From Dehalococcoidia bacterium (lineage in GTDB: Bacteria > Chloroflexota > Dehalococcoidia > UBA6926): a stretch of DNA of 64,000 nucleotides. Shown here in pieces: positions 1 through 42,733 of this stretch (positions within the stretch are counted from its first letter, which is position 1; the number at the start of each line of letters is the position of its first letter). The notes under the pieces are model-generated. The model was not told the origin of the DNA. It made no database searches and saw nothing but the letters and a program-made list of their open reading frames with translations. The DNA is taken from NCBI GenBank assembly GCA_965207115.1, contig CBDBLR010000003.1, positions 2,014 through 66,013 of the forward strand. Reading direction: 5' to 3'. Position numbers and translations under genes: made by a program.

Positions 1-636
1 ATGCTCGCAACCCACACCATAGAACCCGAAGACTTGTTCACGATTTCGGCGGGCGGCTTCAACGCCACCGCCGACGCCTTTGCCCGCGACGACCGCACCG
101 ACGGCCTCTGGTTCGTCTCGATGGTCGGCTCCCAGACGGCGCTCAAGGCGATCTGGGCCTCCCTCCTCAAGCAGCCCCCGGACACAGCTCACCTCATCAG
201 GGGCGCGGATGGGATGGCTTTGACCGGCGGCTACGAACGCTGCGTCATTCCCTACGAGTCGGTGGGTACCTGGACGACCAAGATAGCCCGGCTCCCTGGC
301 TCAGGCGGCTGGCATGCGCTCGTGTACTCGAAGATGGCTGAGTTCAGCTTTGAGCGGGACTCCTTCCTGCTGCTGGCGCAGTCGGAGGAGGAGGCCCCGG
401 CGCTGCACCACCGCTTCCTGGACCGGCGCAGCCCGCTGCCCCTGCACGGCTCCTGGGCCGACTGGCTCTGGAAGCGGGGCATCGACAACGGCGAGATACT
501 CCCGCTTCAAAGCGTGGGCGTCTCGGCCTACAGGTGCTCTCCCAAGGCCGACAAGCTCAGGGATGATCTCTCCGACGCCGTTGCGTCGGGCTTGCTCACC
601 CTGCCCAGGGAGGATTCCGATGGACAGGACGCTTAG
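1..636 (+). CDS. hypothetical protein (211 aa); window begins at its ATG so the 5' end may or may not be complete
   Basis: Long ORF, no recognisable motifs. 3' end overlaps next ORF by 17 nt (operon-like). First gene of a co-directional cluster. Confidence 0.35.
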   Translation: MLATHTIEPEDLFTISAGGFNATADAFARDDRTDGLWFVSMVGSQTALKAIWASLLKQPPDTAHLIRGADGMALTGGYERCVIPYESVGTWTTKIARLPGSGGWHALVYSKMAEFSFERDSFLLLAQSEEEAPALHHRFLDRRSPLPLHGSWADWLWKRGIDNGEILPLQSVGVSAYRCSPKADKLRDDLSDAVASGLLTLPREDSDGQDA

Positions 637-1030
637 GAGGGCCAAGCGCAACAGCAAGCGGCGCGGCCAGCGCAACGTCGGGGCATGGGAGCGCTTCTGC
701 CCCGACGGGAAGACGTGCAGGTACTGCCCCCACGACGGGAGCCAGCACCTGGTCTCCTCAAGCCAGCCTCACTTCTTCAGGCCCGCAACGGAGACCGAAC
801 GGCGCGACCTCTCGGTCATGCTCTACCGGCACACACCGGCGGAAGGCGGCTCGACGCTGGTGCGGCGCATCACCGTCGCCAACCGAGCCGAGCTGATCAC
901 CGCCTATTGCGTGACCTGCGCGGAGAGCATCGGCACACACCAAGTCCTCTGCTACCAGCGCAACCTTGCCATCGGAGAGGTGGTCGGATTGGTAATCAAC
1001 GGCCACAAGGACATCGGAATCACCGCCTGA
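620..1030 (+). CDS. small Cys/His-rich putative zinc-binding protein (HNH-like arrangement CxxC...HD...N...CxxC), 136 aa
   Basis: ATG at 620 in frame with track ORF 314..1030. Motifs CRYC-PHD ... N ... CVTC. Spacing atypical for canonical HNH, so function uncertain. Confidence 0.3.
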   Translation: MDRTLRRAKRNSKRRGQRNVGAWERFCPDGKTCRYCPHDGSQHLVSSSQPHFFRPATETERRDLSVMLYRHTPAEGGSTLVRRITVANRAELITAYCVTCAESIGTHQVLCYQRNLAIGEVVGLVINGHKDIGITA

Positions 1031-1055
1031 CGCGGCAACGGAAAGGAGAGACGAC

Positions 1056-2093
1056 ATGAGACTTGCAGCACAGTCCAAGGGGGGCTACTACCCCACGCCC
1101 GACCGGGTGGTGGACCTGATCGCGGGGCTGATCGACGCGCCCTACGGCTACCACCACCGCAACCAGGAGACGCTGCGCATCCTCGACCCCTGCTGCGGGG
1201 CCGGGGACGCGCTGGCGCAACTGGCGGGGGAGTTCCGCTACCGGGCCTCCCTCCCCGTGGAGACCTACGGCGTGGAGCTTCACCGGGACAGGGCGGAGGA
1301 GGCGCGGAAGAGGCTGGACCACACCTTGGCCGCAGACCTGTTCGCCACCTCCATCGCCAACGGGGTCTTTGGCCTCGCCCTAGTGAATCCTCCCTACGAT
1401 CACGACTCGGAGGACAAGCGCGTCGAACATGCCTTTTTGACCCACTGCACGCGCTACTTGGCCGAGGGTGGGCTGCTGGTGTTCATTGTGCCCCGGCAGA
1501 GGCTATCGGTCTCGGCCCGCTACCTATCCACCCACTATCGGAACCTCAACTGCTGGGCCTTCCCCGTCCCCGAGCGTGAGGTCTTCGACCAGGTGGTCTT
1601 GCTGGGCTACCGCAAGGCAGACCCTGTGCCCGACGCCCACGCCGAGGAGCAGGTGAGGGCGTGGGCCGAGGGAGAGCCGGAGCCTTTGGGCCGGGTGCGC
1701 TACCCCGCCTTCAGGGCGACGGCGACCCCGGCGGGGGACATCCTCTTCACCACCCGCACCGTGGACCCCGTCGCTGCGGCGACCGAGGCCAGGCGGTCGG
1801 GACTGTGGACCAGCACGGCGATCACGGACACCTTGTGGCCCGCACAGGACAACCGCACCCGGCCGCTGATGCCCCTGCGACGCGGCCACATGGCGATGCT
1901 GGTGGCGGCGGGCTTCCTCGACAACCTCGTCCTCGAATCCGAGGGACAGCGCATCCTAGTCAAGGGCAAGACTTCCAAGGAGATGGTGATGGTCGAGGAC
2001 ACCCCGGAGAAGGAGGTCTACCGCGAGCGGCTCAAGACCACCGTCGTCTCCCTGGACCTGGGCGACGGCGAGATCGTCGAGATAGCCGCGTAG
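1056..2093 (+). CDS. gamma-class N6-adenine (amino) DNA methyltransferase, 345 aa
   Basis: Motif X GGYYPTP, motif I DPCCGAGDAL, motif IV LVNPPYD in order X-I-IV with C-terminal TRD. RBS AAAGGAGAG upstream of ATG. Confidence 0.8.
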   Translation: MRLAAQSKGGYYPTPDRVVDLIAGLIDAPYGYHHRNQETLRILDPCCGAGDALAQLAGEFRYRASLPVETYGVELHRDRAEEARKRLDHTLAADLFATSIANGVFGLALVNPPYDHDSEDKRVEHAFLTHCTRYLAEGGLLVFIVPRQRLSVSARYLSTHYRNLNCWAFPVPEREVFDQVVLLGYRKADPVPDAHAEEQVRAWAEGEPEPLGRVRYPAFRATATPAGDILFTTRTVDPVAAATEARRSGLWTSTAITDTLWPAQDNRTRPLMPLRRGHMAMLVAAGFLDNLVLESEGQRILVKGKTSKEMVMVEDTPEKEVYRERLKTTVVSLDLGDGEIVEIAA

Positions 2094-2217
2094 ACGGCTG
2101 CACCCGCAGCCGCGGCAACGAGGCCCCGCTCTGTCCCGCGATGGGACGGCGGGGCCTCGCCTCGTTTCGGAAGCAACGCAACATACCTCTATATATAAGG
2201 AAAGGAATGAGAGAACC

Positions 2218-2427
2218 ATGCAAGCAACCATGACGCTAAAAGCCTGCTGCCGGTGCGGGCAGCCCATCGCCCCCGGCGAACCGGCCATGCAGACCGCCTC
2301 GGTGGACATCGACGATTACGGACGAGTGGTCTCCTCGCCGGTGAAGTCCTACCACCTGAGCGGGCGCTGCTACGAGGACGCCAGGGCCGCCGAAGCCGCC
2401 CGCAGAAAGGCGTTGCTCGCCGCTTAG
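2218..2427 (+). CDS. small zinc-ribbon protein (69 aa)
   Basis: Strong RBS AAGGAAAGGA before ATG. CCRCG...SGRCY Cys pairs. Sits between MTase and helicase. Confidence 0.45.
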   Translation: MQATMTLKACCRCGQPIAPGEPAMQTASVDIDDYGRVVSSPVKSYHLSGRCYEDARAAEAARRKALLAA

Positions 2428-2543
2428 ACGGCTCGCCATCGAGCCGCACATCCAACGAGGCCCCTGCGCCTCGCCAAGCCTGCCCCGTACTCGATACGGG
2501 GTCATCGGACACGCCCACAACCTACATAAGGAAGGAGAACGAC

Positions 2544-4916
2544 ATGAACCTCGGAGAGTTCATCGACACGTACAAGGAGGCCATCGCCCAGCGGGTGGTG
2601 GAGTCCTACCCGCCGCTCTACCGGCCCTCGGAGAACGGCGGCACGCTCCCTCGCCTGCTCCGCTCCCCCCTGGGGGCGCAGGGGGACGCCATAAGGGGCG
2701 CGGCCCTCTCCCTCGAAGCCCACCGGGGAACGACGGTGGTGGGCGAAATGGGCACGGGCAAGACCTTTATCGGCGCGGCGGCGGCGCACATGGCGGGTTT
2801 CCAGCGCATCCTGGTGCTCTGCCCGCCCCACCTGGTTCCTAAGTGGAAGCGGGAGGTGGAGAAGACGGTGCCCGGCGCCCGCGCCGCCATCGTCACCTCC
2901 ATCACCGACCTGGAGCAGCTCCGCTTCTCCATCGGCTCAGGCCCCCTGTTCGCCGTGATGTCGAGAGAACGGGCGAAATTGTCCTACCGCTGGCAGGCCG
3001 CCGTCACCTACCGGTGGGCCACGTCGAGGGGAAGGCTCATCAGGGACGAGGAGACGGGAGAGCCCTTCCGGGTCCCCTGCTGCCCCGACTGCACGGCGCA
3101 GATCACGGACAAGGATGGCGTGCCGCTGACGGATGCCGACCTGAATCGCCGCAAGCACACCTGCCCCGACTGCGGCATTCCCCTGTGGCAGGCCGACAAC
3201 TCCGGCCCCAAGCGCTACCCGCTTGCGGACTACGTGAAGCACCACATGGGGGGCTTCTTCGACCTGCTGGTAACTGATGAGGTCCACGAGTACAAGGGGC
3301 GCGGCTCGGCCCAGGGCATCGCTGCCGGTGTCCTTGCAGACGCCTGCGGGAAGTCCCTCTCCCTGAGCGGCACCCTCATGGGCGGGTACAGCTCCACGCT
3401 GTTCCATCTCCTCTACAGGTTCAGCCCGGAGATTCGGTCGGAGTTCGGGCGCTCCGAGGAGGGGCGCTGGATCGAGCGGTACGGCTTCGTCGAGCACTCA
3501 ATCGGCAAGCCCGACGACGAGTCGATGGAGGACGGGCGCAACAGCAGGCGCAAGAAGTTCCGTAAGGTGGTCCGGGAGAGGCCGGGGCTTGCCCCATCAG
3601 CCCTCTTCCACCTCATCGGCAACACCGTCTTCCTCCGTCTCACCGACGTGGCGTCGGGGCTGCCGGACTACACCGAGCAGATACTCCTGTCCTCGATGGA
3701 CTCGGAGAAGGACCACACGGGCTACTCCCAGCGCAGCGCCTACGACACCGTGTTCGAGGAACTGCGCAAGGAGCTGGCGGAGGCCCTCAAGAGCGGCTCC
3801 AAGAGGCTGCTGGCTACGTACTTGCAGACGTTGTTGGCCTACCCGGACGGGTGCACCAAAGGGGAGACGGTCTTCGACCCCAGGTCGGGCGACGTCATCG
3901 TGCAGGTGCCGCCCCTGTCCGAGGAGAAGCTCTACCCGAAGGAGCAGGCGCTCATCGATCTGGTGGCCGCCGAGCGGATGGAGGGACGCAGGGTGCTGGT
4001 CTACGTCACCCACACGGGGACCCGGGACATCACCGGGCGCATGGACGACATCCTCACCCGGCACGGCTTCCGGGTGGCGGTGATGAAGGCCGACGCCGTG
4101 GCCCCCGACAAGAGGGAGAAGTGGGTCGCCGACAGGGTGAAGCAGGGCATCGACGTCCTCATCTGCCACCCCAGGCTGGTACAAACCGGACTCGACCTCA
4201 TCGACTTCCCGACAATAGTTTGGGATGAGATAGATTACAGCGTGTACGTGATGAGGCAGGCATCACGTCGGTCGTGGCGCATCGGGCAGACCCGCCCGGT
4301 GAAGGTGGTGTACATGAGCTACCGCAACACCCTACAGGCCGACGCCCTCAAGCTGGTGGCGAAGAAGCTGCAAAGCTCGCTAGCGGTGGAAGGCGAGCTG
4401 CCGGAGGACGGGCTGGCCGCCTTTGGGGACGACGGGGACGACATGATGATGGCCCTGGCCCGCAAGATCGTCAGTGGAGACGAGGAAGAGAACGAGGCCG
4501 AGACGGTGGAGGAGGTCTTCGCCCAGGCGCGGAACGCCGAGGCCACCGCCGAGGAGCTGCTGGTGGACGACGGCTGGAAGGTCGTCGAAGTGGAGCCGGA
4601 GACCGTCGCGGTCAACGGCAACGGCCACCATGTCAACGGCAATGGTCACGACGACCTGTTCGGCATCGGGCCGACGGTGGAGCTGGTTCCGGCCAACGGG
4701 CACGCGCCCGCCAACGGGGCCAACCGGAACGGTCACCACGACGAGGCCGAGGAGCCGCAGGAGACGCTGTTCTCCTGGGCGGAGTTCATGGCCGAGGAGC
4801 CGGTGAAGCCGAAGCGCCGAGGTCGCAAGCCTCAGACCGCAACCATGTCCATGTTCGAGTGGGCACTCAGCCTTGAGCAGGAGCGAGAGGGGGAGCTGGT
4901 CGGCGCGGGACGTTAG
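2544..4916 (+). CDS. SNF2-family (SF2) helicase with inserted zinc ribbon and low-complexity Asn/Gly/His acidic tail, 790 aa
   Basis: Walker A GEMGTGKT, motif II LLVTDEVHEYKG, motif III SGTLMGG, motif VI QASRRSWRIGQTRP. CCPDC...CPDCG Zn ribbon between motifs I and II. ATG 2544 preceded by AAGGAAGGAG; the track's GTG-2253 extension lacks RBS support. Confidence 0.85.
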   Translation: MNLGEFIDTYKEAIAQRVVESYPPLYRPSENGGTLPRLLRSPLGAQGDAIRGAALSLEAHRGTTVVGEMGTGKTFIGAAAAHMAGFQRILVLCPPHLVPKWKREVEKTVPGARAAIVTSITDLEQLRFSIGSGPLFAVMSRERAKLSYRWQAAVTYRWATSRGRLIRDEETGEPFRVPCCPDCTAQITDKDGVPLTDADLNRRKHTCPDCGIPLWQADNSGPKRYPLADYVKHHMGGFFDLLVTDEVHEYKGRGSAQGIAAGVLADACGKSLSLSGTLMGGYSSTLFHLLYRFSPEIRSEFGRSEEGRWIERYGFVEHSIGKPDDESMEDGRNSRRKKFRKVVRERPGLAPSALFHLIGNTVFLRLTDVASGLPDYTEQILLSSMDSEKDHTGYSQRSAYDTVFEELRKELAEALKSGSKRLLATYLQTLLAYPDGCTKGETVFDPRSGDVIVQVPPLSEEKLYPKEQALIDLVAAERMEGRRVLVYVTHTGTRDITGRMDDILTRHGFRVAVMKADAVAPDKREKWVADRVKQGIDVLICHPRLVQTGLDLIDFPTIVWDEIDYSVYVMRQASRRSWRIGQTRPVKVVYMSYRNTLQADALKLVAKKLQSSLAVEGELPEDGLAAFGDDGDDMMMALARKIVSGDEEENEAETVEEVFAQARNAEATAEELLVDDGWKVVEVEPETVAVNGNGHHVNGNGHDDLFGIGPTVELVPANGHAPANGANRNGHHDEAEEPQETLFSWAEFMAEEPVKPKRRGRKPQTATMSMFEWALSLEQEREGELVGAGR

Positions 4917-5046
4917 GCCGCAAGGCACAGGGGGAGGACGACGCCGCATCGTGGCGTCCTCCCCCTGCTCGCCGATGTGTGTGGACTTTTTGTGTTTCTG
5001 AGGAAGCGCTTCCCTCGTTCACGGCCATGTGTGTTGGCCTTTTTGT

Positions 5047-5076
5047 TTGTCTCGAAGCCGCCGGTAATCGTATAAT
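5047..5076 (+). promoter_or_regulatory. near-consensus sigma70-type promoter (TTGTCT-18 nt-TATAAT)
   Basis: -35-like TTGTCT 5047-5052, 18-nt spacer, perfect TATAAT 5071-5076, about 40 nt upstream of ATG 5116. Confidence 0.5.
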
Positions 5077-5115
5077 GTCAGATAGTGTGCGTTCCTAGTA
5101 CGCAAAGAGGTGAGC

Positions 5116-5379
5116 ATGACAACACGCCCCCGCGACGAGACGGCCCGCATCGGGAAAGAGATATATGAGAGGGACATTCGCCATCTTGTCGAGGCGGACC
5201 ACCATGGGGATGTCGTCGCCATCGACATCGGCAGCGGATGCTATGCCCTCGGCAAGAATGCCATTGACGCGTCCGAAGGACTGCGGGACCAACACCCGGG
5301 CGCCCAAGTCTGGCTGATGCGGGTCGGACACCGGACGCTGTATCGCTTCGGAGGCAACTCTCTTCGGGGAGCCGGGTGA
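5116..5379 (+). CDS. small hypothetical protein (87 aa), upstream partner of retropepsin-like protease
   Basis: SD GAGGTGA before ATG 5116. Stop TGA overlaps the next start (ATGA coupling). Confidence 0.5.
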   Translation: MTTRPRDETARIGKEIYERDIRHLVEADHHGDVVAIDIGSGCYALGKNAIDASEGLRDQHPGAQVWLMRVGHRTLYRFGGNSLRGAG

Positions 5380-5750
5380 TGGAGGGTGTCGTCAACGGCC
5401 GTCTCGAAGCCATCATAACAGTTTTCCTGCTAGGCTCTGCGGGGCATGCGAGAGAAATCGACGCCGTGGTTGACACCGGCTTCAACGGCTTTCTGACCCT
5501 GCCACCGATGCTGGTAGCTGACTTGGCGCTGCCTGTCGTAGGTGAGGGCGAAGCGGTCCTCGCCGATGGCAGCGAGGCTGTCTTTGACGTGCATAGCGTC
5601 ACGGTGCTCTGGGATGGTCAACCGAGAGCCGTAGAGACTGGGGCGGTTGGCGGGGACCCGTTGGTGGGAATGGCTCTCATGGAAGACCACGACTTGAGAA
5701 TTCGAGTGTGCAACGGCGGGCGAGTGCTTATAGAGGCTACGTCACAGTAA
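5379..5750 (+). CDS. retropepsin-like (clan AA) aspartic protease, standalone about 120-aa type
   Basis: Catalytic motif VVDTGFNGFLTLP (D-T/S-G) and size match bacterial/archaeal single-domain retropepsin-like proteases. Start overlaps upstream stop. Confidence 0.7.
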   Translation: MEGVVNGRLEAIITVFLLGSAGHAREIDAVVDTGFNGFLTLPPMLVADLALPVVGEGEAVLADGSEAVFDVHSVTVLWDGQPRAVETGAVGGDPLVGMALMEDHDLRIRVCNGGRVLIEATSQ

Positions 5751-6032: not shown

Positions 6033-6045
6033 CCCCCCCCCCCCC
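6033..6045 (+). repeat. homopolymeric C13 tract in 5' leader of giant surface-protein gene
   Basis: 13 consecutive C read directly; ends 14 nt before ATG 6060. Confidence 0.85.
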
Positions 6046-6059
6046 GATTTTCGTGGGGA

Positions 6060-9000
6060 ATGCCTGTCGTGAGACGCCCGGCAAGGACCTTCCTCGCCTT
6101 GATGCTGGCTGTGGCGGCGTTGTTTGCGCTGCTGGTCGGCGGGACTGAGAACGCCTCCGCCCAACAACAGTCGCAGGCGCTGGTCAGCAACATTGGTCAG
6201 TCCGACAGCGGGCGGGGCGCATGGGGCAACGACTATGCCCAGGCGTTTACCACAGGCAGCGAGAGCACGGGCTACACGCTGAACAGCGTCGATATCGAGA
6301 TCGCGGGGATCAACGATTTCTCTGCTCTTTCTTCGAAACTAACGGTCACCATCCGCAGCGGTTCCGGCATTACTCCGGGTGCGGTGGTCGGCACCCTGAC
6401 GAATCCCTCCAACCGGATCTTCACCTCGGACCAAACGCTCAACTTCGCTGCGCCCGGGGCGGGCATTGACCTGGCGGCGGACACCAAGTACTGGGTCATG
6501 GTCGACGTGACCGGGAACATTTCGGGCCAGACCAATAGCGACGGCCTGCGCAACACGGCATCGGACGCCGAAGACTCCGGCGCCGCGGCCAGCTGGAGCA
6601 TTGCCGACGACAGCCGGCACCGGACCCGGACCTCAACCGGCGCCTGGACCACCTCTACCGAATCCATGAAAATCCGGATCGTCGGCGGCGTGAAGCCGCC
6701 GCTCATCAGCAACCTCGGTCAGGCGGACACCGGCGGCACGGGGTTGAATATCGACCAGGCCCAAGCGTTCACCACAGGTGGCAACGGCGGGGGTTACACG
6801 CTAACCAGCGCCGATTTGGTAATCGGCCTGAACAACGATTCTGCTCTCTCATCGAAACTGACGGCCACCATCCAGAGCCCGCTGGGCACGGTCATCGGCA
6901 CTCTGACGACTCCCGCCATCCCAACGACGAACTCGAATCAAACGGTCAACTTCGCCGCGCCCGGGGATGGCATCGACCTGGCGGCGAACACCACATACTG
7001 GTTGGTGTTCGACAGTACAGGAGTCTCAACGGGTGATGCTAGTACCGGAGCTACCCCATCGTCCGCCGAGGACTCCGGCGGCGCGGACGGCTTCAGCATC
7101 GCCAACGACAGATGGTACCGGTTCCAGAGCGATACTTCTTGGACTCAGATCGGCGGCAGCGCGCTGAAAATCCGCATCATCGGCGGCGTGAAGCTGCTTA
7201 CAGTGAACGCCGACGGCAGCTACACGGTGCCCGAGGACTGGGCGCTGCTCCCGGCGGGCTTCGGGCCTGGGGACCGGTTCCGGCTGATGTTCATGACGCA
7301 GGGTATGGAAAGTGCGCTTCGAAGCGACATCGGGTTCTACGACACGTATGTGCAAGGCGAGGCGGAGAGCGGGCACGGCGCCATCCGGCCGTATGCGGAG
7401 CTGTTCAAGGTGGTGGGCTCGACCTCGGCGGTGGACGCCCGTGACCACCTGGACATGAACCCGAGCAGCGACGGCGCGGGCCATCCCGTCTACTGGCTGC
7501 GCGGCCCCCGCATCGCGGATGACACCGCCGAGTTCTGGTCGGACAACTGGCAGAACTGGACGATTGCCAACCGCCGCAACGCGAACGGGAACGAGATGAC
7601 CGGCAGTGCGAGAGGCGACTGGCACTGGACCGGCACGCGAGCGGACGGGAGGGGGCACGCCTCCTTGCATCTGGGGAGCAACGACCGGGTTATGCGGGGC
7701 CGGTTCCTGAACTTCACCTCCGACCGGAACCCGCTCGACCACACCGGAACGCCCCGGGGCCAGGACCACTCCTTCTACGCCATGTCGCCGGTGTTCGTCG
7801 TGGATGGCCTCACCTATCTGGACCCTGGCAGCAACCCCCAGACTGGGAAACTCGTCGAAATCGACAAGACCCGCTTCAAGGTGGACGAGCCCGCCAGCTG
7901 CGGGGTGAACGAGGGCCGCAAGCAGAACGAGCGTGATAGTGATAGAGAGGGTAAGTGGGAGTCAACCATCGCGGACGACACGACGTACTCGTACAACGTG
8001 CGGCTGTTGCGGGACCCGGCGCTCGACCCGAAGATCGACACGGTGAAGGTTGAAGTGGTGGGCGGCAGCCCGCCCGACTGGTGGACGGCGCACCGGGCAG
8101 GGTTTGTGACGGTGGAGGACAAGGCTCCGGATATTGAGCCCAAGCAGGTCCTGCATTTCGATTCGTCCAACTGGGACCAGTGGCAGAACGTCCAGCTGCG
8201 GATTCACTGCGCGGACCACTTCCACTTCGGCGATGTCACCTGGCGGCAGTTCCGGCACGTCAGCTACACAAACAACAAGAGAAGGGATGGTAGGACTTTC
8301 CTGCAGAACGAAGAGCCGGTGGTGAAGGTGAAGGTGTTCGACAACCGGATACCGGCGTTGATGGACAGCTACAGCCACGAACTGAGCATGCAGGCGGAGA
8401 CCAACGAGTACGGCCGCCGTGGGGTTGAGACCGAGGTCATCAACTACGTGTACTGGCAGTGGAAGTTGCCCGGCGTCACGGGCAACGTGGACAGCGATGC
8501 GGACAAGCACTTCTCCCACTGGCATCTGCGGCTGCTCGCGGACAATAGTGTTGGTGGCAATGCACCGGACTGGGTCAAGAACGTCTCGACCGACGAGGGG
8601 TACTCCTTCAATCCGGACGGCAGATACAAGGCTGGGATGCGGATGCGGGGTCTGCCGACCAAGACGCCGTTCACCGCGCCTCCGAACAAGCAGTACCGGC
8701 TCGACATCACTCCGGTGACCCTGCGGGAAGAGATGGCGGAGGGCGCGAAGCTGACCGTCTGCATAGAGATGCGGGACGTGCGTCCAGACTGGGACACCCC
8801 CAACTGGCGGGCGTACTACATCCCCTGCACGCCGGCGCTGAATGCCCTGAGCCCCCAGCAGATGGCCCCGCCGGTGACCCCGACAGTGTTCATCGCGGGG
8901 GCCGGGGGCGGAGATGAAGGGCAGGGCTCCGTCTTCTTCATCAACACGAACCCCAAGCCCAGGTCCCCGCTGAAGGTGAATGTGGAGGTCACGGCCACGG

Positions 9001-12000
9001 GCGACTACGGGGTGACGACGGGGACGCGGACCATCACGATCCCGACCACGGGCCTCTACGACCTGAACATCGCCACCGTGGACGACGAGGTGGACGAGGA
9101 CGACGGCACGGTGACCCTCACCCTGCGGGATGGCGACGGCTACATCGTCGGCCCGGGGAACACGGAGACCACCGACGTCTTCGACAACGACCTGCCGCTG
9201 GCGCCGGCCATAGTCACGCCCGCGGTGAACGTCACGGGGGCCTCCGGCGGGAACGAGGGCGAGGACGCCGTCTTCACCCTGGAGGCGAGCCCCAAGACGG
9301 ACGCCGCCCTGGACGTGAACATAGAAGTCACGGCCACGGGCAGCTACGGGGTGAAGCCGGGCAAGCGGACGGTGACGATACCGGCCTCGGGCAGCCTGAG
9401 GCTGACCATCCCCACCAGGAATGATGGCACGGACGAACCCGACGGCACGGTGACCGTGACCCTGCAGGCCGGGGACGGCTACGAGATCGGGGCGCAGGCC
9501 TCGCAGAGCGCGGACATATTGGACAACGACCTGCCACCGGTGCAGGTCACAGTCGCCGACGCCATAGCGCAGGAGGGCGACGACCTGGAGTTCGTGATCA
9601 GCCTGGACCGCGCGGCGGACCACCAGGTCATCGTGCACTACGTCACGCTGGACTGGGATGCCTGGCATCCGGACGACTACGCCCAGGCCCTCGGCCACGT
9701 GACGTTCGCGCCGGGCGAGACGCAGCAGACGGTGCGCGTCCCGACAGTGGTTGACAACCGGGACGAATGGGGCCATGAGGAGGGGCAGGAGCGAATGCTC
9801 TTCCAGGTGACGGGCGTCGAAGGCGGCGAGGACGGCGACGATGATACCATCGGGATCATCAGCGACGACCCGGTGGACACCACGCCGAAGCCGGAGCTGA
9901 GCATCAGCGGAGGCAGCGGGATCACCGAGGGCGGCACGGCCACCTTCACCATCACCGCGAGCTTTGCGCCGGAAGACCCCATCACCGTCAAGGTGGGGGT
10001 GTCCCAGGGCGGGGACTTCGGCGTCTCGACCGGCACCAAGACGGTGACGGTGAGCGGCACGTCGACGACCTACACCGTCACGACTACAGACGACAGCGCC
10101 GACGAGCCGGACGGCTCGGTGACGGCGACGCTGCAAAGCGGCAGCGGCTACACCGTGTCTTCCTCGAATGGAGCGGCGTCGGTGTCCGTGGCCGACGACG
10201 ACCTGCCGCCGCCGGTGGCGAGCATCACCGGAGGCAATGGGATCACCGAGGGCGGCACTGCCAGCTTCACCATCACGGTCAACCCGGCCCCAACCAGTCC
10301 AATCACGGTCAAGGTGGGGGTCTCCCAGAGCGGGAACTTCGGCGTCAGCACCGGGACCAAGACGGTGACGGTGAGCGGCGGGACGGCGACCTACACCGTG
10401 ACTACCATCAATGACAACGCCGACGAGCCCGACGGCTCGGTGACGGCGACGCTGCAAAGCGGCAGCGGCTACACCGTGTCCTCCTCTAATGGAGCGGCCA
10501 CGGTGGCCGTGGCCGACGACGACGTCACGCCTGAGGTGAACGTCACCAGCGCGGCCAGCGGACCGGAGGGTCAGGACGTCACCTTCACGCTGACGGCCAA
10601 CCCGGCCCCGGGGGCCAACCTGCCGGTGAGCGTCACGGTGACCGGCAGCGGCGACTACGGCGTCTCCACGGGAACCTGGGTCGAGACCATCCCGACCGGC
10701 GGGAGCGTCGTCGTGACGCTCACCACCACGGACGACTCGACCGACGAGCCCAACGGGTCGGTGACGCTGACGGTGAACGGCGGCCAGGGCTACACCGTGG
10801 GGTCCCTGTCCAGTGAGACGGTGACGGTGACCGACAACGACGAACCACGGCAGCCACTACTGCTGCCGGACCCCGAGGTGAGCATCACCGCAGGGAGCGG
10901 GATCATCGAGGGCGGCACTGCGACCTTCACCATCACCGCCAACCCGGCGCCAAGCAGCCCCATCACGGTCAACGTGGGGGTCAGCGAGAACGGCGACTTC
11001 GGTGCCAGCGGCGCGGCCACGGTCACGGTGAGCGGCGCGAGCACGACCTACACCGTGACAACGACCAACGACAACGCCGACGAGGCCGACGGGTCGGTGA
11101 CGGCGACGCTGCAAACGGGCAGCGGCTACACCGTGTCCTCATCGCAGGGGGCGGCCTCCGTGGCCGTGTCCGACGACGACGTGCCCGAGGTGAGCATCAC
11201 CGCAGGCAGCGGGATCACCGAGGGCGGCACGGCCAGCTTCACCATCACGGCCAGCCCGGCCCCGGCCAGCCCCATCACGGTCAAGGTGGGGGTCAGCGAG
11301 AACGGAGACTTCGGGGCCAGCGGGTCGGCCACGGTGACGGTGAGCGGCGCGAGCACGACCTATACCGTGACCACCATCAATGACAACGCCGACGAGGCCG
11401 ACGGGTCGGTGACGGCGACGCTGCAATCGGGCAGCGGCTACACCGTGTCCTCATCGCAGGGGGCGGCGACGGTTGCCGTGTCGGACGACGACGTGCCCGA
11501 GGTGAGCATCGCCGCAGGGAGTGGGATCACCGAGGGAGGCACGGCCAGCTTCACCATCACGGCCAACCCTGCCCCGGCCAGCCCCATCACGGTCAAGGTC
11601 GCAGTAAGCGAGAACGGCGACTTCGGGGCCAGCGGGTCGGCCACGGTGACGGTGAGCGGCGCGAGCACGACCTACACCGTGACCACCACCAATGACAACG
11701 CCGACGAGGCCGACGGCTCGGTGACGGCGACGCTGCAATCGGGCAGCGGCTACACGGTGTCCTCCTCACAGGGGGAGGCTACCGTTGCGGTGTCGGACGA
11801 CGACGTGCCGACCGACGGCAACAGCGACACCCTGACGGTGTCCGTCGCGGATTCGGAGAGCGCAGGTCCGGGAGAGTTCCTCAAGTTCACGGTCTCGGCC
11901 AGCGAGACCGCCCAGCAGGATGTCACCGTCACGTTCACCGTGAGCAACATCGGCGGCTTGATTCAAGGCTTGGACTACTGCATCCTGCCCTCGGATGAGG

Positions 12001-12224
12001 AGCCCGACGCCAACTTCCGGTGCATGTTCCTCCCCTATGAGCATGACAACGAGGGAGGCCAGGTGACCATCGCCGCGGGCGAGGACAGCGCGACGGTCTA
12101 CATCTGGATCGACCGGGACGCCCGGGTGCCCTCCGGCCAGCCGCGGATCTTCGTCGATCTCACCGAGGTGGAGGGAGCGAAGGAGATTACCGATGGACTT
12201 GGAGAGGGCCGGGTCGAAAGATAA
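6060..12224 (+). CDS. giant secreted surface protein (2054 aa): signal peptide, two N-terminal ~175-aa repeat domains, central globular region, ~10 Calx-beta-like tandem domains
   Basis: N-terminus MPVVRRPARTFLALMLAVAALFALLVGGTENASA-QQQ (signal peptide, AxA cleavage). Repeats of ~100 aa ending ...TVTIxDNDxP / ...VAVSDDDVPEV, typical of Calx-beta. High DNA identity between repeats. Confidence 0.85.
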   Translation: MPVVRRPARTFLALMLAVAALFALLVGGTENASAQQQSQALVSNIGQSDSGRGAWGNDYAQAFTTGSESTGYTLNSVDIEIAGINDFSALSSKLTVTIRSGSGITPGAVVGTLTNPSNRIFTSDQTLNFAAPGAGIDLAADTKYWVMVDVTGNISGQTNSDGLRNTASDAEDSGAAASWSIADDSRHRTRTSTGAWTTSTESMKIRIVGGVKPPLISNLGQADTGGTGLNIDQAQAFTTGGNGGGYTLTSADLVIGLNNDSALSSKLTATIQSPLGTVIGTLTTPAIPTTNSNQTVNFAAPGDGIDLAANTTYWLVFDSTGVSTGDASTGATPSSAEDSGGADGFSIANDRWYRFQSDTSWTQIGGSALKIRIIGGVKLLTVNADGSYTVPEDWALLPAGFGPGDRFRLMFMTQGMESALRSDIGFYDTYVQGEAESGHGAIRPYAELFKVVGSTSAVDARDHLDMNPSSDGAGHPVYWLRGPRIADDTAEFWSDNWQNWTIANRRNANGNEMTGSARGDWHWTGTRADGRGHASLHLGSNDRVMRGRFLNFTSDRNPLDHTGTPRGQDHSFYAMSPVFVVDGLTYLDPGSNPQTGKLVEIDKTRFKVDEPASCGVNEGRKQNERDSDREGKWESTIADDTTYSYNVRLLRDPALDPKIDTVKVEVVGGSPPDWWTAHRAGFVTVEDKAPDIEPKQVLHFDSSNWDQWQNVQLRIHCADHFHFGDVTWRQFRHVSYTNNKRRDGRTFLQNEEPVVKVKVFDNRIPALMDSYSHELSMQAETNEYGRRGVETEVINYVYWQWKLPGVTGNVDSDADKHFSHWHLRLLADNSVGGNAPDWVKNVSTDEGYSFNPDGRYKAGMRMRGLPTKTPFTAPPNKQYRLDITPVTLREEMAEGAKLTVCIEMRDVRPDWDTPNWRAYYIPCTPALNALSPQQMAPPVTPTVFIAGAGGGDEGQGSVFFINTNPKPRSPLKVNVEVTATGDYGVTTGTRTITIPTTGLYDLNIATVDDEVDEDDGTVTLTLRDGDGYIVGPGNTETTDVFDNDLPLAPAIVTPAVNVTGASGGNEGEDAVFTLEASPKTDAALDVNIEVTATGSYGVKPGKRTVTIPASGSLRLTIPTRNDGTDEPDGTVTVTLQAGDGYEIGAQASQSADILDNDLPPVQVTVADAIAQEGDDLEFVISLDRAADHQVIVHYVTLDWDAWHPDDYAQALGHVTFAPGETQQTVRVPTVVDNRDEWGHEEGQERMLFQVTGVEGGEDGDDDTIGIISDDPVDTTPKPELSISGGSGITEGGTATFTITASFAPEDPITVKVGVSQGGDFGVSTGTKTVTVSGTSTTYTVTTTDDSADEPDGSVTATLQSGSGYTVSSSNGAASVSVADDDLPPPVASITGGNGITEGGTASFTITVNPAPTSPITVKVGVSQSGNFGVSTGTKTVTVSGGTATYTVTTINDNADEPDGSVTATLQSGSGYTVSSSNGAATVAVADDDVTPEVNVTSAASGPEGQDVTFTLTANPAPGANLPVSVTVTGSGDYGVSTGTWVETIPTGGSVVVTLTTTDDSTDEPNGSVTLTVNGGQGYTVGSLSSETVTVTDNDEPRQPLLLPDPEVSITAGSGIIEGGTATFTITANPAPSSPITVNVGVSENGDFGASGAATVTVSGASTTYTVTTTNDNADEADGSVTATLQTGSGYTVSSSQGAASVAVSDDDVPEVSITAGSGITEGGTASFTITASPAPASPITVKVGVSENGDFGASGSATVTVSGASTTYTVTTINDNADEADGSVTATLQSGSGYTVSSSQGAATVAVSDDDVPEVSIAAGSGITEGGTASFTITANPAPASPITVKVAVSENGDFGASGSATVTVSGASTTYTVTTTNDNADEADGSVTATLQSGSGYTVSSSQGEATVAVSDDDVPTDGNSDTLTVSVADSESAGPGEFLKFTVSASETAQQDVTVTFTVSNIGGLIQGLDYCILPSDEEPDANFRCMFLPYEHDNEGGQVTIAAGEDSATVYIWIDRDARVPSGQPRIFVDLTEVEGAKEITDGLGEGRVER
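10872..11807 (+). repeat. three near-identical 312-bp (104-aa) in-frame tandem repeats inside giant gene
   Basis: Unit begins CCCGAGGTGAGCATCACCGCAGG at 10872, 11184 and 11496. Minus-strand shadow ORFs also recur with a 312-nt offset. Confidence 0.9.
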
Positions 12225-12576: not shown

Positions 12577-13986
12577 TCACTCACTTACCGGAAGGCGAAT
12601 GGTCACCGTCACGCCCTGCCCGGGACCGTCGCTCGCGACATCAACCGTGCCTCCATGCGCCTCGATAATCGCTCGGGTAATGGCCAACCCCAGCCCCGTC
12701 CCGCCGACCCCTCGATTACGAGACTGGTCGGTTCGGTAGAAGCGATCAAAGATATGGGGAATGTCCGCGGCGTCGATGCCGATTCCGTCATCGGTGATTG
12801 AGACCACCAGCGCCTCGTCGCCGTCTTGTCTGGCCTTCAGCAGAATACTTCCTCCGGCCTCGGTGCAATGAATAGCGTTGTTGATAACGTTTCCCAGCGC
12901 CTGGCTCATGCGCATGCGATCAACGTCCACGTCTGGGAGGTCAGGGGCCAGATCCACCGACAGCGCAACGTTCCCGGCCTCACACTGGGGCTGCCACCGG
13001 TTCACTTCTGCTGTGAACAGCTCGGAAAGCGATGTTGCTTCCCGCGCAAGCCGAAGCTCTCCATGGTCGGTCTCCGCAAGCCAGTCCAGGTCAGTCACTA
13101 TGCCGCCCAGCCTGTCCACCTCCTGGATGATGTGATCCGAGGCGCTCTCAGGGGACTGAAGTCCATCCCGCAGCCCCTTCGCCTCCAGCTTGATAACACT
13201 CAGTGGGGTGTTCAGCTCGTGCGAGACGTCGTTTATCAGACGCCTGCGAAGCTCGCGCTGGGTCTCCAGGGCGGAGGTCATCCGGTTGAACGCCGCGCTC
13301 ATACGGCCCAACTCGTCTGAGGATGTGACCGGAAGCCGCGTCGCGTCCCCCTGGGCAATCGACTGGGTCGCCTCGGTCAATGCCTTCACGGGCGCCGTGA
13401 TCCGCCTGGACAACCAGAAAGCCACCAGGATGGCAATGCCAACCGTCAGCGCCCCGCCAATCGCAGTGATGTAAAGGAGTGTATTGAGGAACCCATGTGT
13501 CTCGGTGGACAAGTATTCCTGGTTCACGTCCACGTAGACGTAACCCACCGGCTGGTCATTAGCCAGGTCGAACACCGTCTCCTGCCGCCCCTCCAGCTCG
13601 GACGTGATGTCTTCCGGAGAGAGCACGGACAGGTTGTCCATCACAACACGCCCATCGAGCCCGGTGATAACAACTCGCACCTGGTCTTGATGGAATAGTT
13701 CCGAAGAGCCTTCCTCCCCCTCCCGGTGATTTTCCCCTTCCCGAGGACCGTCGTAAATGTATCCGGCCTCGGACAGTGCCCGGTCCACTGTTTCCCAGCC
13801 ATCTGCGGCGGTATACTCCCGGCTTATGTCTCTGGCCAGCTGAGCAGCCTCCTCACTGCCGATCCGGTCCACGAACACACCAAGGCGGGCCTGCGTCGCG
13901 TAGTAGCCAACGGCGACGCTTGCCAGGACAGTAAGAAGGACGACCAGAACGGTCACGCCCATGATTCGCCAGTGAAGAGACATCAC
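12577..13986 (-). CDS. sensor histidine kinase (2 TM, periplasmic sensor, HAMP, HisKA, HATPase_c)
   Basis: H-box VSHELNTPL; G-boxes GGTGLGL; two hydrophobic segments flanking an ~150-aa extracytoplasmic domain; overlaps RR gene by 4 nt. Confidence 0.85.
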   Translation of the reverse strand: MMSLHWRIMGVTVLVVLLTVLASVAVGYYATQARLGVFVDRIGSEEAAQLARDISREYTAADGWETVDRALSEAGYIYDGPREGENHREGEEGSSELFHQDQVRVVITGLDGRVVMDNLSVLSPEDITSELEGRQETVFDLANDQPVGYVYVDVNQEYLSTETHGFLNTLLYITAIGGALTVGIAILVAFWLSRRITAPVKALTEATQSIAQGDATRLPVTSSDELGRMSAAFNRMTSALETQRELRRRLINDVSHELNTPLSVIKLEAKGLRDGLQSPESASDHIIQEVDRLGGIVTDLDWLAETDHGELRLAREATSLSELFTAEVNRWQPQCEAGNVALSVDLAPDLPDVDVDRMRMSQALGNVINNAIHCTEAGGSILLKARQDGDEALVVSITDDGIGIDAADIPHIFDRFYRTDQSRNRGVGGTGLGLAITRAIIEAHGGTVDVASDGPGQGVTVTIRLPVSE

Positions 13987-14660
13987 TCGTCCTCTACCAC
14001 GAACCTGTAGCCCGCCCCGTACACGGTCTGAATCGGCGTATTGCCATCCTGGTTGATCTGCCTTCGCAGAGGGGCAACCTGGCTGTCGATGGCACGGTCA
14101 AACCCTTCAAATTCATCGTTGAAGGCCAGGGCGATTAGCCGGTCGCGCGAAAGCACCTGGTTGGGATGACGCATAAACGTCGAGAGCAGGGCTATCTGCG
14201 CCTGGCTCAGCGTCACGGGTTCTTCGTTAACCGTCACGACACTCGTGGTCTCGTTCAGCATGATGTTGCCGCGGGTCAGAACCTGCTGGACTTTGTCCTT
14301 CACGCGGCGTAGCACGGCTGTGGCTCGGGCAATGACCTCATCCGGATCGAATGGCTTGACGATGTAGTCGTCGGCTCCAATATCGAGTCCCATGATGCGC
14401 TCGGCGGGCGCTTCTCTGGCCGTCAGCATGATGATTGCAACGTCCGATTCCCGGCGCAGGATCTTGCACAACTCCACTCCGTCGAGGCGGGGAAGCATCA
14501 GATCAAGAATGATTAGGTCGGGAGCCAGTTCGCGGGCCAGTGCCAGACCGGCCTCGCCGTCGTGGGCAACCTCAGCGGAAAATCCGGCACGTTCGAAATA
14601 CACCCTGACCCAGTTCGCGATCCGGGTATCGTCTTCGACTATTAGTACCGTGTCGCTCAT
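13983..14660 (-). CDS. OmpR-family response regulator
   Basis: Receiver LIVEDD...ILDLMLP...D; winged-helix C-terminus GYRFV. Confidence 0.9.
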   Translation of the reverse strand: MSDTVLIVEDDTRIANWVRVYFERAGFSAEVAHDGEAGLALARELAPDLIILDLMLPRLDGVELCKILRRESDVAIIMLTAREAPAERIMGLDIGADDYIVKPFDPDEVIARATAVLRRVKDKVQQVLTRGNIMLNETTSVVTVNEEPVTLSQAQIALLSTFMRHPNQVLSRDRLIALAFNDEFEGFDRAIDSQVAPLRRQINQDGNTPIQTVYGAGYRFVVEDE

Positions 14661-14794
14661 CGTCGACCCCTGGGGAATGTCTCAGGGAGTGGTGCCTCAG
14701 CTGAGGCACCACTCCCACTTTCGCATGCGCTAGAGTCCATCATCTTACTTGAAGCGGCGCTGTGATAGGTCACTCTCACCGATTCTGATTGGCC

Positions 14795-16375
14795 CTAGCC
14801 TCGTCCGCGTTCACCACCGGAGCCGTGCTCACCGCCCGACTCGCCGCCGGAGCCATGCTCGCCACCACCTTCACTGCCGCTGCCGTGCTCGCCGCCGGAC
14901 TCGCCGCCGCCGACTTCGGCATGGGCGACCCATCCGGTGAACGGCGCCTGCGTGGATGGCATGTTGACTCTGGCCACCCAGCCCGGGCCCAGGTTGACGG
15001 GATTCGTCGGCCCGAGTTCGGTTCCGTTCGACAGGTGCACCTCGATTCTGACTCGATTCAAGATGCTCCTCGTCGTATTCTCCACGGTGCCCTTGAACGA
15101 ATTGCTCGGGGCGTCAAAGGCCAGGATCAGCCGCGCGCCGCTGCGGATCTCATCGTAGGTCTGGTCAGGCGCCAGCTGATTGGCCCCGCTGCCCTCTTCG
15201 CTGCCGGACTCTCCACTGCGTTCACTGCCGGACTCGGCGCCGCTGCCTTCAGCACTGTTGCTTCCGGAGCCTTCGCTGCCGCCTTCACCACCGGGCCCGT
15301 GGCCCTCGCCACCGGAACCCTCGCCGCCACCGCCTTCTCCTGAGCCTTCACCGCCGCCACTGCCCTCAGTGCTCTGTCCCGGCATGTGAGGCACAGGTCC
15401 GGTGCCGCCGCAGTCGAACACTTCCAGGTGAACGACGTACCCGTCAAAGGAAACCCCTGCGAGGCTCGGCTCGCTGGCCAGCGGCACGCTCGTCGCGGCC
15501 GATTGTCCAGGACTCAGGTGTCCCAGTACATCGGGGCCAAGCTCGCCAACAGTCGTCGTGCCCGACTTCAGGTGCGGTTCGGCCTGCACGTAGCAGAGCA
15601 CCTGCGAGAGCGTGTTTGTGACCAGTGACTGGACCGATTGAGTTGCCGGATCGAACCGCGCAACGACGTCCAGCCCGCCAAGGTTGCCCGCCCAGGTATC
15701 ACTGAGTGGGATGATGGGGCTGGACATCTCGGCTTCACCGGCCTCAGCGCCCATGCCGCCGCTCTCAGTGCCCTCGGGCCCCTCATTACCGCCCTCGCTG
15801 CCGGTGCCTTCGCCGCCGGACTCGCCACCGCCTTCACCGCTGCCAACCTCGGCATGAGGTGTCCATCCGGTGAACGGTTCCACGGTTGAGGGCAGGTTGA
15901 CCGGCAACACCTGACCCGGTGCCAGGTCGACGGGCGTCGTCGGCCCGAGTTCTGTGCCGTTGTCGAGATGCACTTCGATCCTGACCCGTGTCAGGGTGTT
16001 ATTGGTTGTGTTCTCTACCGTGCCTGTGAAGGCATTGCTCCCGGCGTCGTAGTTCAGGATCAAGCGAGCGCCGCTGCGAACCGTGTCGAAGGTCTCGTCA
16101 GGCGCCAACTGATTTGCGCCGCTCCCCTCTTCACTGCCGGACCCGGAGCCTTCACCGCCGGATTCTCCACCGGATTCGCTGCCGCTTTCACCGCCGGAGC
16201 TGTGCTCGCCGCCGCTCTCTCCGCCGGAACTCTCCTGGCTCGTGCCCTCGCTTCCGGACTCTGGACCTTCGCTGGATTCGTTGTTGCTTGTGCAGCCGCT
16301 GAGGATCACCACCAGGAATAGCGCCCCCACCGCAACTACCAGGAACATACTTCTCATCAGCTTCTTGATAATCAT
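14795..16375 (-). CDS. acidic Gly/Ser/Glu/His-rich lipoprotein with two repeated ~95-aa domains; putative divalent-cation-binding
   Basis: Signal peptide + lipobox LSGC. Repeated GGEHGSG / GGESGGE linkers. Internally duplicated domain (…SGARLIL.YDA.SN.F.GTVENTT…RVRIEVHL.NGTELGPT…). Excellent RBS AAGGAG 6 nt before ATG 16375. Co-directional upstream of the TCS. Confidence 0.6.
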   Translation of the reverse strand: MIIKKLMRSMFLVVAVGALFLVVILSGCTSNNESSEGPESGSEGTSQESSGGESGGEHSSGGESGSESGGESGGEGSGSGSEEGSGANQLAPDETFDTVRSGARLILNYDAGSNAFTGTVENTTNNTLTRVRIEVHLDNGTELGPTTPVDLAPGQVLPVNLPSTVEPFTGWTPHAEVGSGEGGGESGGEGTGSEGGNEGPEGTESGGMGAEAGEAEMSSPIIPLSDTWAGNLGGLDVVARFDPATQSVQSLVTNTLSQVLCYVQAEPHLKSGTTTVGELGPDVLGHLSPGQSAATSVPLASEPSLAGVSFDGYVVHLEVFDCGGTGPVPHMPGQSTEGSGGGEGSGEGGGGEGSGGEGHGPGGEGGSEGSGSNSAEGSGAESGSERSGESGSEEGSGANQLAPDQTYDEIRSGARLILAFDAPSNSFKGTVENTTRSILNRVRIEVHLSNGTELGPTNPVNLGPGWVARVNMPSTQAPFTGWVAHAEVGGGESGGEHGSGSEGGGEHGSGGESGGEHGSGGERGRG

Positions 16376-24377: not shown

Positions 24378-24596
24378 CTTGGACAGTCTCCTTGCTCCCA
24401 CCCGCCTCTCATCTTACGATTGCCAGCATGCCTGATGACCATATCTTGTGTATTTTAGCTTATGTGTACGTATGTAGCAATCTAGAATCGCCCTTCTGCG
24501 TTGACAGGCATGGGGCAAGAATCACTTAGCTGGAATAGCGTACATTGGCAAGTTAGTCGTGAGTGAATTCAACAATCGACGGCCGCGCACTCCCCC

Positions 24597-42361: not shown

Positions 42362-42733
42362 CACGTTCAAGTGACTACGCCTAGCGTTAGGCGTGGGGCT
42401 TTCCGTGTACTGCATGCACACGCGCGGGAAACCCCTGCATAGCGTGGCGCAGTCGGGATAAAGAGACAGGGAACAGGAGAGCGCGGGGCTCTCTAAGACT
42501 ATGGAGACTGACCGGACAAAGCAGGAAGCGCGGGAAAGTCAGCGCCTCCGGCCGCAACAAGCGGCTAACGGGAGGCTCTCCTGACACCCACGGATGGGGA
42601 GGAGCACATGCACTCACAAGAACCCTGGCAATCGCGAAGCCCAACGGGCAGCGTGAATAAACCGTTGATTTCCTCTACACTTATGAAGACGGGCCGCAGA
42701 GGCCCAAATCACAGTTACGGAAGGGGGCTTCCT

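Follow-up and report, generated by a model that had tools for sequence, protein, structure and literature searches.

A DUF6094 methyltransferase, an SNF2-like ATPase and a third conserved protein at the end of a conjugative-type element backbone in Dehalococcoidia

Results

The five genes at the locus

The stretch of DNA analysed here (the window, 64,000 nucleotides of contig CBDBLR010000003.1 from a Dehalococcoidia bacterium) opens with five co-directional genes on the plus strand, among them those of a putative DNA methyltransferase and of a helicase-like ATPase. They are, in order, g1 (1-636; 211 amino acids, aa; full length by comparison with homologues of 203-235 aa), g2 (620-1030; 136 aa; a small Zn-binding protein), the gene of a γ-class, N6-adenine-type methyltransferase of the DUF6094 family (1056-2093; 345 aa), g4 (2218-2427; 69 aa; a small C2HC Zn-knuckle protein), and the gene of an SNF2-like ATPase/translocase of superfamily 2 (SF2), for brevity the helicase (2544-4916; 790 aa). 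The start of g2, which the initial annotation had placed at 623, was moved to the ATG at 620, and the overlap with g1 is 17 nucleotides (nt). The helicase start was corrected to the ATG at 2544, preceded by the ribosome-binding site AAGGAAGGAG; database protein P0001, likewise of 790 aa, has the identical sequence (100%). There is also a ribosome-binding site upstream of g4.

Judging from their conservation, the five open reading frames (ORFs) are real genes and not chance frames of a sequence with 67% G+C, because all of them are recovered by tblastn in 52 to 86 of a set of 86 related Dehalococcoidia loci (median protein identity 76-84%), the homologues of g2 and g4 are free of stops and keep their zinc ligands, and the helicase is intact in 85 of the 86 copies. 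The ligands of g2 (C33/C36…C97/C100, and C111) are 98-100% conserved in 48 unique homologues, and those of g4 (C10, C13, H46 and C51) 97-100% in 39. The initial annotation had described a cluster of five co-directional genes: the genes stand and are conserved across the related loci, while the limits of the cluster are an artefact of a window that starts inside a larger conserved array. The motifs that it had read in the proteins are likewise present, namely NPPY in the methyltransferase (residues 111-114), the CxxC…CxxC of g2 (C33/C36 and C97/C100), the zinc knuckle of g4 (C10/C13…H46/C51), and, in the helicase, the internal ribbon (C180/C183…C207/C210), the Asn-Gly-His and acidic tail (residues ~690-732) and the basic patch KPKRRGRKPQ (residues 755-764).

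The products of g1, g2 and g4 have no match in Pfam, NCBIfam, PADLOC or PHROGs. Genes g2 and g4 occur in 52 and 62, respectively, of the 86 Dehalococcoidia loci, and neither has a counterpart beside the plasmid homologues inspected; by this distribution they are lineage-specific extras. A small ORF found between the methyltransferase and helicase genes of plasmid pXO1 was considered as a possible g4 and is unrelated.

The methyltransferase

The methyltransferase matches the Pfam family DUF6094 (PF19587) with a score of 87.6 bits against a cut-off of 22.8 (E 9.2e-25); the Pfam entry is described as an 'uncharacterised methyltransferase family', and the plasmid homologues of the protein carry the annotation 'DUF6094 domain-containing protein'. 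Its motifs follow each other in the order X (GGYYPTP; residues 9-15, 1080-1100), I (LDPCCGAGD; residues 43-51, 1182-1208), II (residue E74) and IV (NPPY; 1386-1397), with a conserved C-terminal domain at residues ~190-345. By this motif order the enzyme is of the γ class, and together with the membership in DUF6094 the order upholds the γ class given in the initial annotation. In an alignment of homologues from four phyla DPxxGxG, E74 and NPPYD are invariant, as is the GGYYPTP of motif X. Similarities to DNA methyltransferases are weak: they comprise a partial match to Pfam N6_Mtase (2.4e-6), a match to PADLOC MTase_II (8.7e-8), and a match to M.BseCI, which is the closest solved structure (E 0.003). 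There is in addition a partial Pfam MTS match, and a match to the PADLOC profile mad2 (7e-17) that covers the catalytic core only (profile positions 266-401 of 492). On the strength of these motifs and matches a DNA adenine is the likely target of the enzyme.

The helicase

The helicase contains motif I (GEMGTGKT, 2742-2765), a Zn ribbon with four cysteines inserted in lobe 1 (3078-3176), DEVHE (3276-3290) and a motif VI of SNF2 type (QASRRSWRIGQ, 4257-4289). The Q motif, GEMGTGKT, DEVHE, SGT and QASRRSWRIGQ are all invariant in an alignment spanning four phyla, and so are the four cysteines of the ribbon, from Chloroflexota to Pseudomonadota. The name SNF2-like was chosen because Pfam recognizes only Helicase_C and ResIII in this protein, with no SNF2-rel_dom. 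The 'SNF2 helicase' of the initial annotation is thus an SF2 enzyme, and its C-terminal lobe resembles the SNF2 remodellers most, the nearest solved relatives of lobe 2 being CHD1L, SWR1 and INO80 (4e-10); some homologues are named 'SNF2-related' by RefSeq. With all the motifs of the methyltransferase and of the ATPase invariant, both proteins are predicted to be catalytically competent.

Beyond the catalytic lobes lies a C-terminal tail (4407-4913), which includes an acidic stretch and contains, in order, Asn-Gly-His repeats (4611-4739), the motif LFSWAEF (4767-4787), the basic patch (4806-4835) and the motif SMFEW (4848-4862). The aromatic motifs are invariant in 36 Dehalococcoidia homologues, and the spacers between the motifs are variable. 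The tail does not align in the matches found by tblastn on plasmids, in which the aligned portion is residues 1-622; the succession of a basic patch and [LM]F nevertheless recurs in the helicase tails of plasmids pOCEPR01 and pMU3262, and within the Dehalococcoidia family it is invariant. As a speculation, the basic/aromatic tail might serve in docking, for instance in export through a type IV secretion system (T4SS) or with a partner in the replisome.

The third component

The initial annotation had left g1 as a mere hypothetical protein; it appears instead to be a third component of the system. At E≤1e-3 the g1 family has 352 representative clusters, and most of its members are proteins of ~200-250 aa that stand alone. 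In pOCEPR01 a g1 homologue adjoins the DUF6094 gene, with which it overlaps by 4 nt (full-length BLASTP match, 1e-8), and in pKLC102 a homologue that matches end to end likewise adjoins DUF6094 (hhalign 81.5%, E 1e-5); in the Vibrio plasmid pVS127 it lies between DUF6094 and the helicase (hhalign 82%, E 1e-5). In two Bacillota plasmids, pMU3262 (98.1%, E 7.8e-14) and pDSM3922.1 of Alicyclobacillus (93.7%, E 1.8e-7), the helicase begins with a fused g1 domain, and a weak trace of g1 can be recognized in pXO1 (E 0.002). The fusion in the Bacillota plasmids argues that g1 works with the helicase, as a non-catalytic accessory domain or subunit. Since the methyltransferase gene lies between g1 and the helicase gene in several lineages, the three proteins probably form one unit.

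There are no conserved acidic or lysine residues among 57 diverse members of the g1 family, and no Pfam match in any of them; a profile search of the PDB was without match (best E 0.61); and a structure model of medium confidence resembles no known fold. On these grounds g1 is, as far as sequence and model can tell, not a recognizable nuclease, and it was set aside as a member of any known fold as well. The g1-like ORFs of the plasmids have no Pfam match either. A DUF3275 protein of Vibrio, considered as a relative of g1, is unrelated.

The methyltransferase-helicase pair on plasmids and conjugative elements of other phyla

In a tblastn search of 72,556 plasmids the helicase (residues 1-622, 35-45% identity) was found on 331 and the methyltransferase (33-35% identity) on 318. 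The genus profiles of the two proteins are nearly identical: Bacillus contributes ~240 plasmids and Vibrio 10, followed by Paenibacillus, Cytobacillus and Clostridium with 7 each, and by Pseudomonas, Thermus and others. Adjacency of the DUF6094 and helicase genes was confirmed in six elements from Deinococcota, Bacillota and Pseudomonadota: Oceanithermus pOCEPR01 (MPF_T, MOBC), where the three genes overlap by 4 nt, Thermoanaerobacterium pMU3262, the P. aeruginosa plasmid and integrative and conjugative element (ICE) pKLC102 (MPF_G, MOBH), B. anthracis pXO1, Vibrio pVS127 and Alicyclobacillus pDSM3922.1. The initial annotation had asked whether homologues of the methyltransferase and the helicase are linked elsewhere, and was to be abandoned if they never co-occurred or if the region were core genome with no mobile context. 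What was found is the opposite: the two genes are adjacent in these six plasmids and elements and are linked in 67 of the 86 Dehalococcoidia loci, and the pair sits on conjugative plasmids and elements.

The neighbours of the pair on plasmids are of a recurrent kind. RadC adjoins the module in pVS127, an ArdC-like protein neighbours it in pOCEPR01, dnaN is near it in pOCEPR01 and pDSM3922.1, and an AcrIIA9-family gene is near it in pDSM3922.1. It can be seen that the pair of the window and that of plasmids and ICEs, Thermus plasmids included, belong to homologous families with the same catalytic motifs and Zn ribbon, that in both cases the genes are adjacent and co-directional and have a partner of g1 type, and that both have a mobile setting, often near RadC, SSB or ArdC. 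The window module differs in its Chloroflexota host, in the additional g2 and g4, and in its many chromosomal copies; its helicase differs in the long acidic, Asn-Gly-His-rich tail.

In islands of the PAPI-1 type the interval from 'a putative helicase' to TraG is a recognized variable hotspot for defence genes (PMC12629846). This hotspot is probably the stretch from the helicase homologue to traD in pKLC102, and would then parallel the cargo junction that follows the helicase in the window.

Two further features of these elements were observed. The pKLC102 methyltransferase has a C-terminal extension of ~100 aa (residues ~380-481; L009, 10406-11851) that ends in ...RLWIITEANRSSTTLLLPSDY, is absent from the other three aligned homologues and has no Pfam match. 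In pXO1 a group II intron lies ~0.6 kb downstream of the helicase gene.

The Dehalococcoidia element

Homologues with 83-92% identity abound. Those of the helicase fall in more than 2,500 clusters, nearly all of them metagenomic; the named ones are from metagenome-assembled genomes (MAGs) of Chloroflexota and Dehalococcoidia, in series that probably derive from marine sponges. Among GTDB species representatives there are 469 relatives, the best 80 of which are all from Dehalococcoidia or Chloroflexota MAGs. Several copies can share a genome: at least five contigs have three loci each, and one chromosome of 4.19 Mb carries four distinct helicases.

As the window begins within the conserved array, its upstream context was drawn from relatives with 83-92% identity. 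The array starts with two 164-aa proteins, a Toprim/DnaG-Zn primase, Rad52, DUF7007, TSCPD and a 365-aa protein, and ends with DUF2958, SSB, RadC, g1, g2, the methyltransferase, g4 and the helicase; in the 67 loci mentioned above the methyltransferase gene is just upstream of the helicase gene at the end of this co-directional series. Altogether it is a DNA-processing operon of ~12 kb with the five window genes at its 3' end, and the stand-alone cluster of the initial annotation is to be replaced by the 3' end of this operon of an integrated element of conjugative type. Upstream of the array, on the opposite strand, the related loci have T4SS-like genes. One of these divergent genes encodes a TrbL/VirB6-like membrane protein (Pfam 1.8e-4, below the cut-off), and a divergent fragment matches 'VirB4-like conjugal transfer ATPase, CD1110 family' (tblastn 1e-7) and has no Pfam match; the two recur in 12-15 of the related loci. 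Six of the 86 loci have a large serine recombinase in the vicinity of the module. The window itself holds neither such a recombinase nor the T4SS-like genes, whose position is upstream of it.

At the other end, the nucleotide homology of the window to the 86 related loci stops at ~4945-5000, that is 30-85 bp past the stop codon of the helicase, at a terminator-like hairpin on the plus strand (4929-4966; RNA fold -42.6 kcal/mol, z = -3.4) that is followed by a T-run on the same strand (4987-4999); a second terminator-like site is found at 5023-5039. The cargo after the helicase varies between copies. Overall, comparison of the copies shows that 1-4916 closes the conserved backbone of an integrated element of conjugative type that is present in many copies, and that the cargo starts right after the helicase.

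A short variant of the element accounts for ~18-19 of the 86 loci. In it everything from the primase to g4 is missing, the helicase is intact, and a 372-aa protein with at least three HTH_3 domains is encoded directly upstream of the helicase (for example in L030, 8620-9738). The helicases of the short variants are polyphyletic, being scattered in a neighbour-joining tree of helicases, and full-length copies of the element are often found in the same genome.

Cargo genes and the flanking chromosome

Several observations concern the region 3' of the helicase. In 38-43 of the 86 loci an operon of Prok_Ub, Prok-E2_D, ThiF (E1-like) and three unknown proteins follows directly (for example L002, 12488-15899); DUF2958 is relocated downstream of this operon in the loci that carry it, and the subfamily of the window is without it. 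In L003 a group II intron (RVT_1, Intron_maturas2, HNH; 13981-15771) is inserted inside the ThiF gene, and the otherwise identical L002 has no intron. Some copies have CARDB proteins and a recombinase as cargo. Downstream of a short-variant helicase, in L030 (13062-16456), an ORF with no Pfam match, which we take to resemble the C-terminus of BREX PglX, precedes the gene of a PglZ-domain protein (Pfam 6.6e-7); this region suggests defence cargo at the same junction.

In the window itself the terminators are followed by a promoter-like site (5047-5076) and a two-gene cassette (5047-5750), in which the genes for proteins of 89 aa (5110-5379) and 124 aa (5376-5750) overlap stop to start. Neither protein has Pfam or PHROG matches; the second contains a D-T-G motif (VVDTGFNG), presumably of the kind typical of retropepsin-like aspartic proteases. 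Similar two-gene cassettes are found in the cargo regions of L021, L024, L030 and L082. The next gene (6060-12224) encodes a secreted repeat protein of 2054 aa with one Calx-beta Pfam match. Ten other loci have related giant repeat proteins after the helicase, and the region upstream of the gene is 85% identical in L021; the giant protein looks like recurrent cargo of the element. A 13-nt poly-C tract (6033-6045), the longest homopolymer in the window, lies 14 nt upstream of its ATG, and the alignment between the window and L021 ends exactly at this tract, which could be a slipped-strand switch for phase variation or a site prone to sequencing error.

From 12.5 kb onwards the window is ordinary chromosome, with genes for a two-component system, an OpuA-type transporter, ThrRS, PEP carboxylase, CTP synthase and Rho; the assignment to the chromosome is based on the housekeeping genes at 33-52 kb. 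Among the latter there is an ORF of 1401 aa (42608-46813) with no Pfam match at E≤1e-4. The host chromosome also encodes an OLD-family ATPase/TOPRIM nuclease (22713-24401) and a GmrSD-type (type IV restriction) protein (31335-33227), and therefore the host has restriction-type barriers.

Discussion

The interpretation that we favour, tentatively and with slightly less than even confidence, is that the trio forms a complex in which a DNA methyltransferase is coupled to a motor, without any nuclease, and which is directed at the DNA of the element itself at establishment, probably against restriction. According to this proposal, g1, the DUF6094 methyltransferase and the SNF2-like ATPase would assemble as a motor-coupled DNA methyltransferase whose architecture would resemble that of a type I restriction-modification (R-M) enzyme minus the nuclease and the separate specificity subunit; the motor would track along the DNA of the element, and the methyltransferase would modify its adenines during or just after conjugative entry, with the outcome that restriction by the host would not cut the element. 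In this way the trio would share its function, though not its ancestry, with P1 DarB and with the orphan methyltransferases that plasmids encode in their leading regions.

The analogy with type I R-M systems (HsdM, HsdR and HsdS) lies in the combination of a γ-class N6-adenine methyltransferase with an SF2 translocase of double-stranded DNA, and in the presence of an extra domain or subunit at the N-terminus of the motor. The difference is that here there is no PD-(D/E)xK nuclease, no HsdS-like subunit, and no match to HsdR or HsdS in Pfam or NCBIfam; more generally, Pfam, NCBIfam, PADLOC and PHROG searches place none of the five proteins in a nuclease or HsdS family, and no effector of another kind was found. 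An R-M system of type I or III was rejected on this basis, the motor having no nuclease domain and the module no specificity subunit. The remark of the initial annotation that DUF1998, phospholipase D-like (PLD) and nuclease partners are missing is confirmed, and neither these nor PglZ or HsdS are conserved with the pair.

Among the known functions that can be attached to such an arrangement, anti-restriction appears the most plausible, by analogy and by the company that the genes keep: they are surrounded by genes of the kind usually met in establishment or leading regions, which include the co-oriented SSB, RadC and DUF2958 genes of the array and, on plasmids, the ArdC-like and AcrIIA9-family genes. 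In the leading regions of plasmids, orphan methyltransferases rank with the most prominent of the enriched functions, and an anti-restriction protection has been proposed for them (PMC11541004, Samuel et al. 2024); neither the text of that paper nor its supplementary files, as far as examined, mention DUF6094. Like those enzymes, the window methyltransferase has no cognate nuclease, is encoded beside ssb and genes of anti-restriction type, and belongs to an element of conjugative type; the difference is that it is obligatorily linked to a motor and to g1.

The initial annotation had raised the comparison with P1 DarB in the form of a 'split DarB-like' protein, that is a true homologue whose halves have separated from a common origin, which we regard as scarcely credible. 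The domain composition is the same, as in both cases a mobile element encodes an adenine-type methyltransferase together with SF2 helicase domains, and PHROG 62 ('DNA helicase', a profile of 1881 positions) matches the window helicase at 1.9e-35. The similarity does not extend to the sequences: two-sequence BLASTP searches found no more than segments at the level of chance (best E 0.047 and 0.084), and a tblastn search of 50,697 phage records gave five weak matches, all to unannotated metagenomic records and none to P1. There are no relatives in IMG/VR, and with phage-record matches so few and so weak a prophage was ruled out too. Furthermore, DarB is a single phage polypeptide of 2255 aa, without Zn ribbon and without g1 partner, whereas here there are three separate proteins on an element of conjugative type, with both features. 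DarB is packaged in the virion. What the two may share is the role, which in the annotation of the P1 record is the protection of incoming DNA from type I restriction. The 'defence module' of the initial annotation corresponds to another possibility, an element-borne defence or exclusion system of the BREX, DISARM, Druantia or MADS type, whose helicase would sense or block unmethylated DNA without a dedicated nuclease. A methyltransferase with a large SF2 helicase is indeed a hallmark of such systems, DISARM with its SNF2-like helicase being the nearest in composition; there are partial PADLOC matches to mad2, ZorD (1.5e-9), DpdE and DrmD, and the module borders a cargo region that has defence genes in PAPI-1 and a PglZ gene in L030. 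All these matches are limited to generic catalytic cores: for DISARM, NCBIfam DrmD scores 18 bits against a cut-off of 610, PADLOC DrmD (4.6e-4) extends over 45 residues, and no DrmA, DUF1998 or PLD was found among the called neighbours in the 86 loci or in the six plasmids inspected; for MADS, NCBIfam MAD2 scores 21.6 bits against 720 and no other component was matched; for Zorya and Dpd, the ZorD and DpdE matches cover the cores only. No PADLOC or NCBIfam system model is satisfied. Moreover, the pair belongs to the backbone, constant while the cargo varies, and on plasmids sits among transfer and establishment genes, so that a defence system appears quite improbable.

A more serious contender, still rather unlikely in our judgement, is that the helicase and g1 are a motor for replication, strand conversion or recombination, such as an annealing helicase or a fork remodeller, and that the methyltransferase is a co-transcribed regulatory or orphan enzyme uncoupled from it. 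The genes are co-directional with those of the primase, Rad52, SSB and RadC; the RadC neighbour in pVS127 and the nearby dnaN in pOCEPR01 and pDSM3922.1 are of the same kind; the short variants keep the helicase and dispense with the methyltransferase; and in PAPI-1-type islands the helicase is a conserved landmark that bounds the cargo hotspot (PMC12629846). Against such a motor, the short variants are also without primase, Rad52 and SSB, and the helicase is independent of these proteins there. In addition, wherever an element was inspected, in four phyla, methyltransferase and helicase are adjacent, also where the operon has otherwise different genes. Moreover, the methyltransferase gene separates g1 from the helicase gene with which g1 is partnered, an arrangement that argues for a single unit.

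The motor-coupled methyltransferase has its own difficulties, and the following points weigh against it. Methyltransferases of the NPPY type also comprise enzymes that act on RNA and on protein glutamine, and the assignment of DNA as the substrate here rests on the weak matches described above. Because the short variants keep an intact helicase in the absence of everything from the primase to g4, the helicase can persist without a methyltransferase encoded in cis; it is possible that co-resident full copies supply the enzyme in trans, or that the variants reflect modular recombination. Neither relaxase nor origin of transfer nor attachment sites were found for the element, and the putative placement in a leading region is drawn from the neighbours. 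An AlphaFold2 model of the helicase, built on a shallow alignment (84-93% identity), is too poor to use (predicted local distance difference test score, pLDDT, 41.7). Finally, no study of function was found in the literature for the DUF6094-helicase pair: 'DUF6094' occurs in one paper, an unrelated one, and the papers on ICEclc, on PAPI-1 and on leading regions contain no functional data on the two proteins.

A broader proposal, which we put forward as unlikely, is that the trio represents an unrecognized, phylum-spanning class of nuclease-free 'translocating methyltransferase' complexes that would serve as an anti-restriction and establishment device of conjugative elements, the conjugative equivalent of P1 DarB, and would perhaps be exported through the T4SS by means of the basic tail of the helicase. 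The gene families as such are already widely annotated, as 'DUF6094 domain-containing protein', 'DEAD/DEAH box helicase' and 'SNF2-related protein'; what is new is the view of three components, with the g1 fusion as evidence, and their placement in an element of conjugative type that proliferates in Dehalococcoidia.

The module occurs on elements of medical and ecological importance, among them the pKLC102/PAPI-1-type ICE, pXO1, and plasmids of Vibrio and Thermus. Genetically tractable homologues exist, among them those of P. aeruginosa pKLC102/PAPI-1 (WP_003125296, WP_003125297 and WP_003159705) and of Vibrio pVS127. The three-part view turns an annotation of the type 'DUF plus helicase' into a testable hypothesis on how conjugative DNA survives in new hosts. 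For the Dehalococcoidia, it concerns a family of conjugative-type elements that has multiplied in their genomes and whose cargo includes giant adhesin-like proteins and operons for ubiquitin-like conjugation, and it bears on gene flow in uncultured bacteria.

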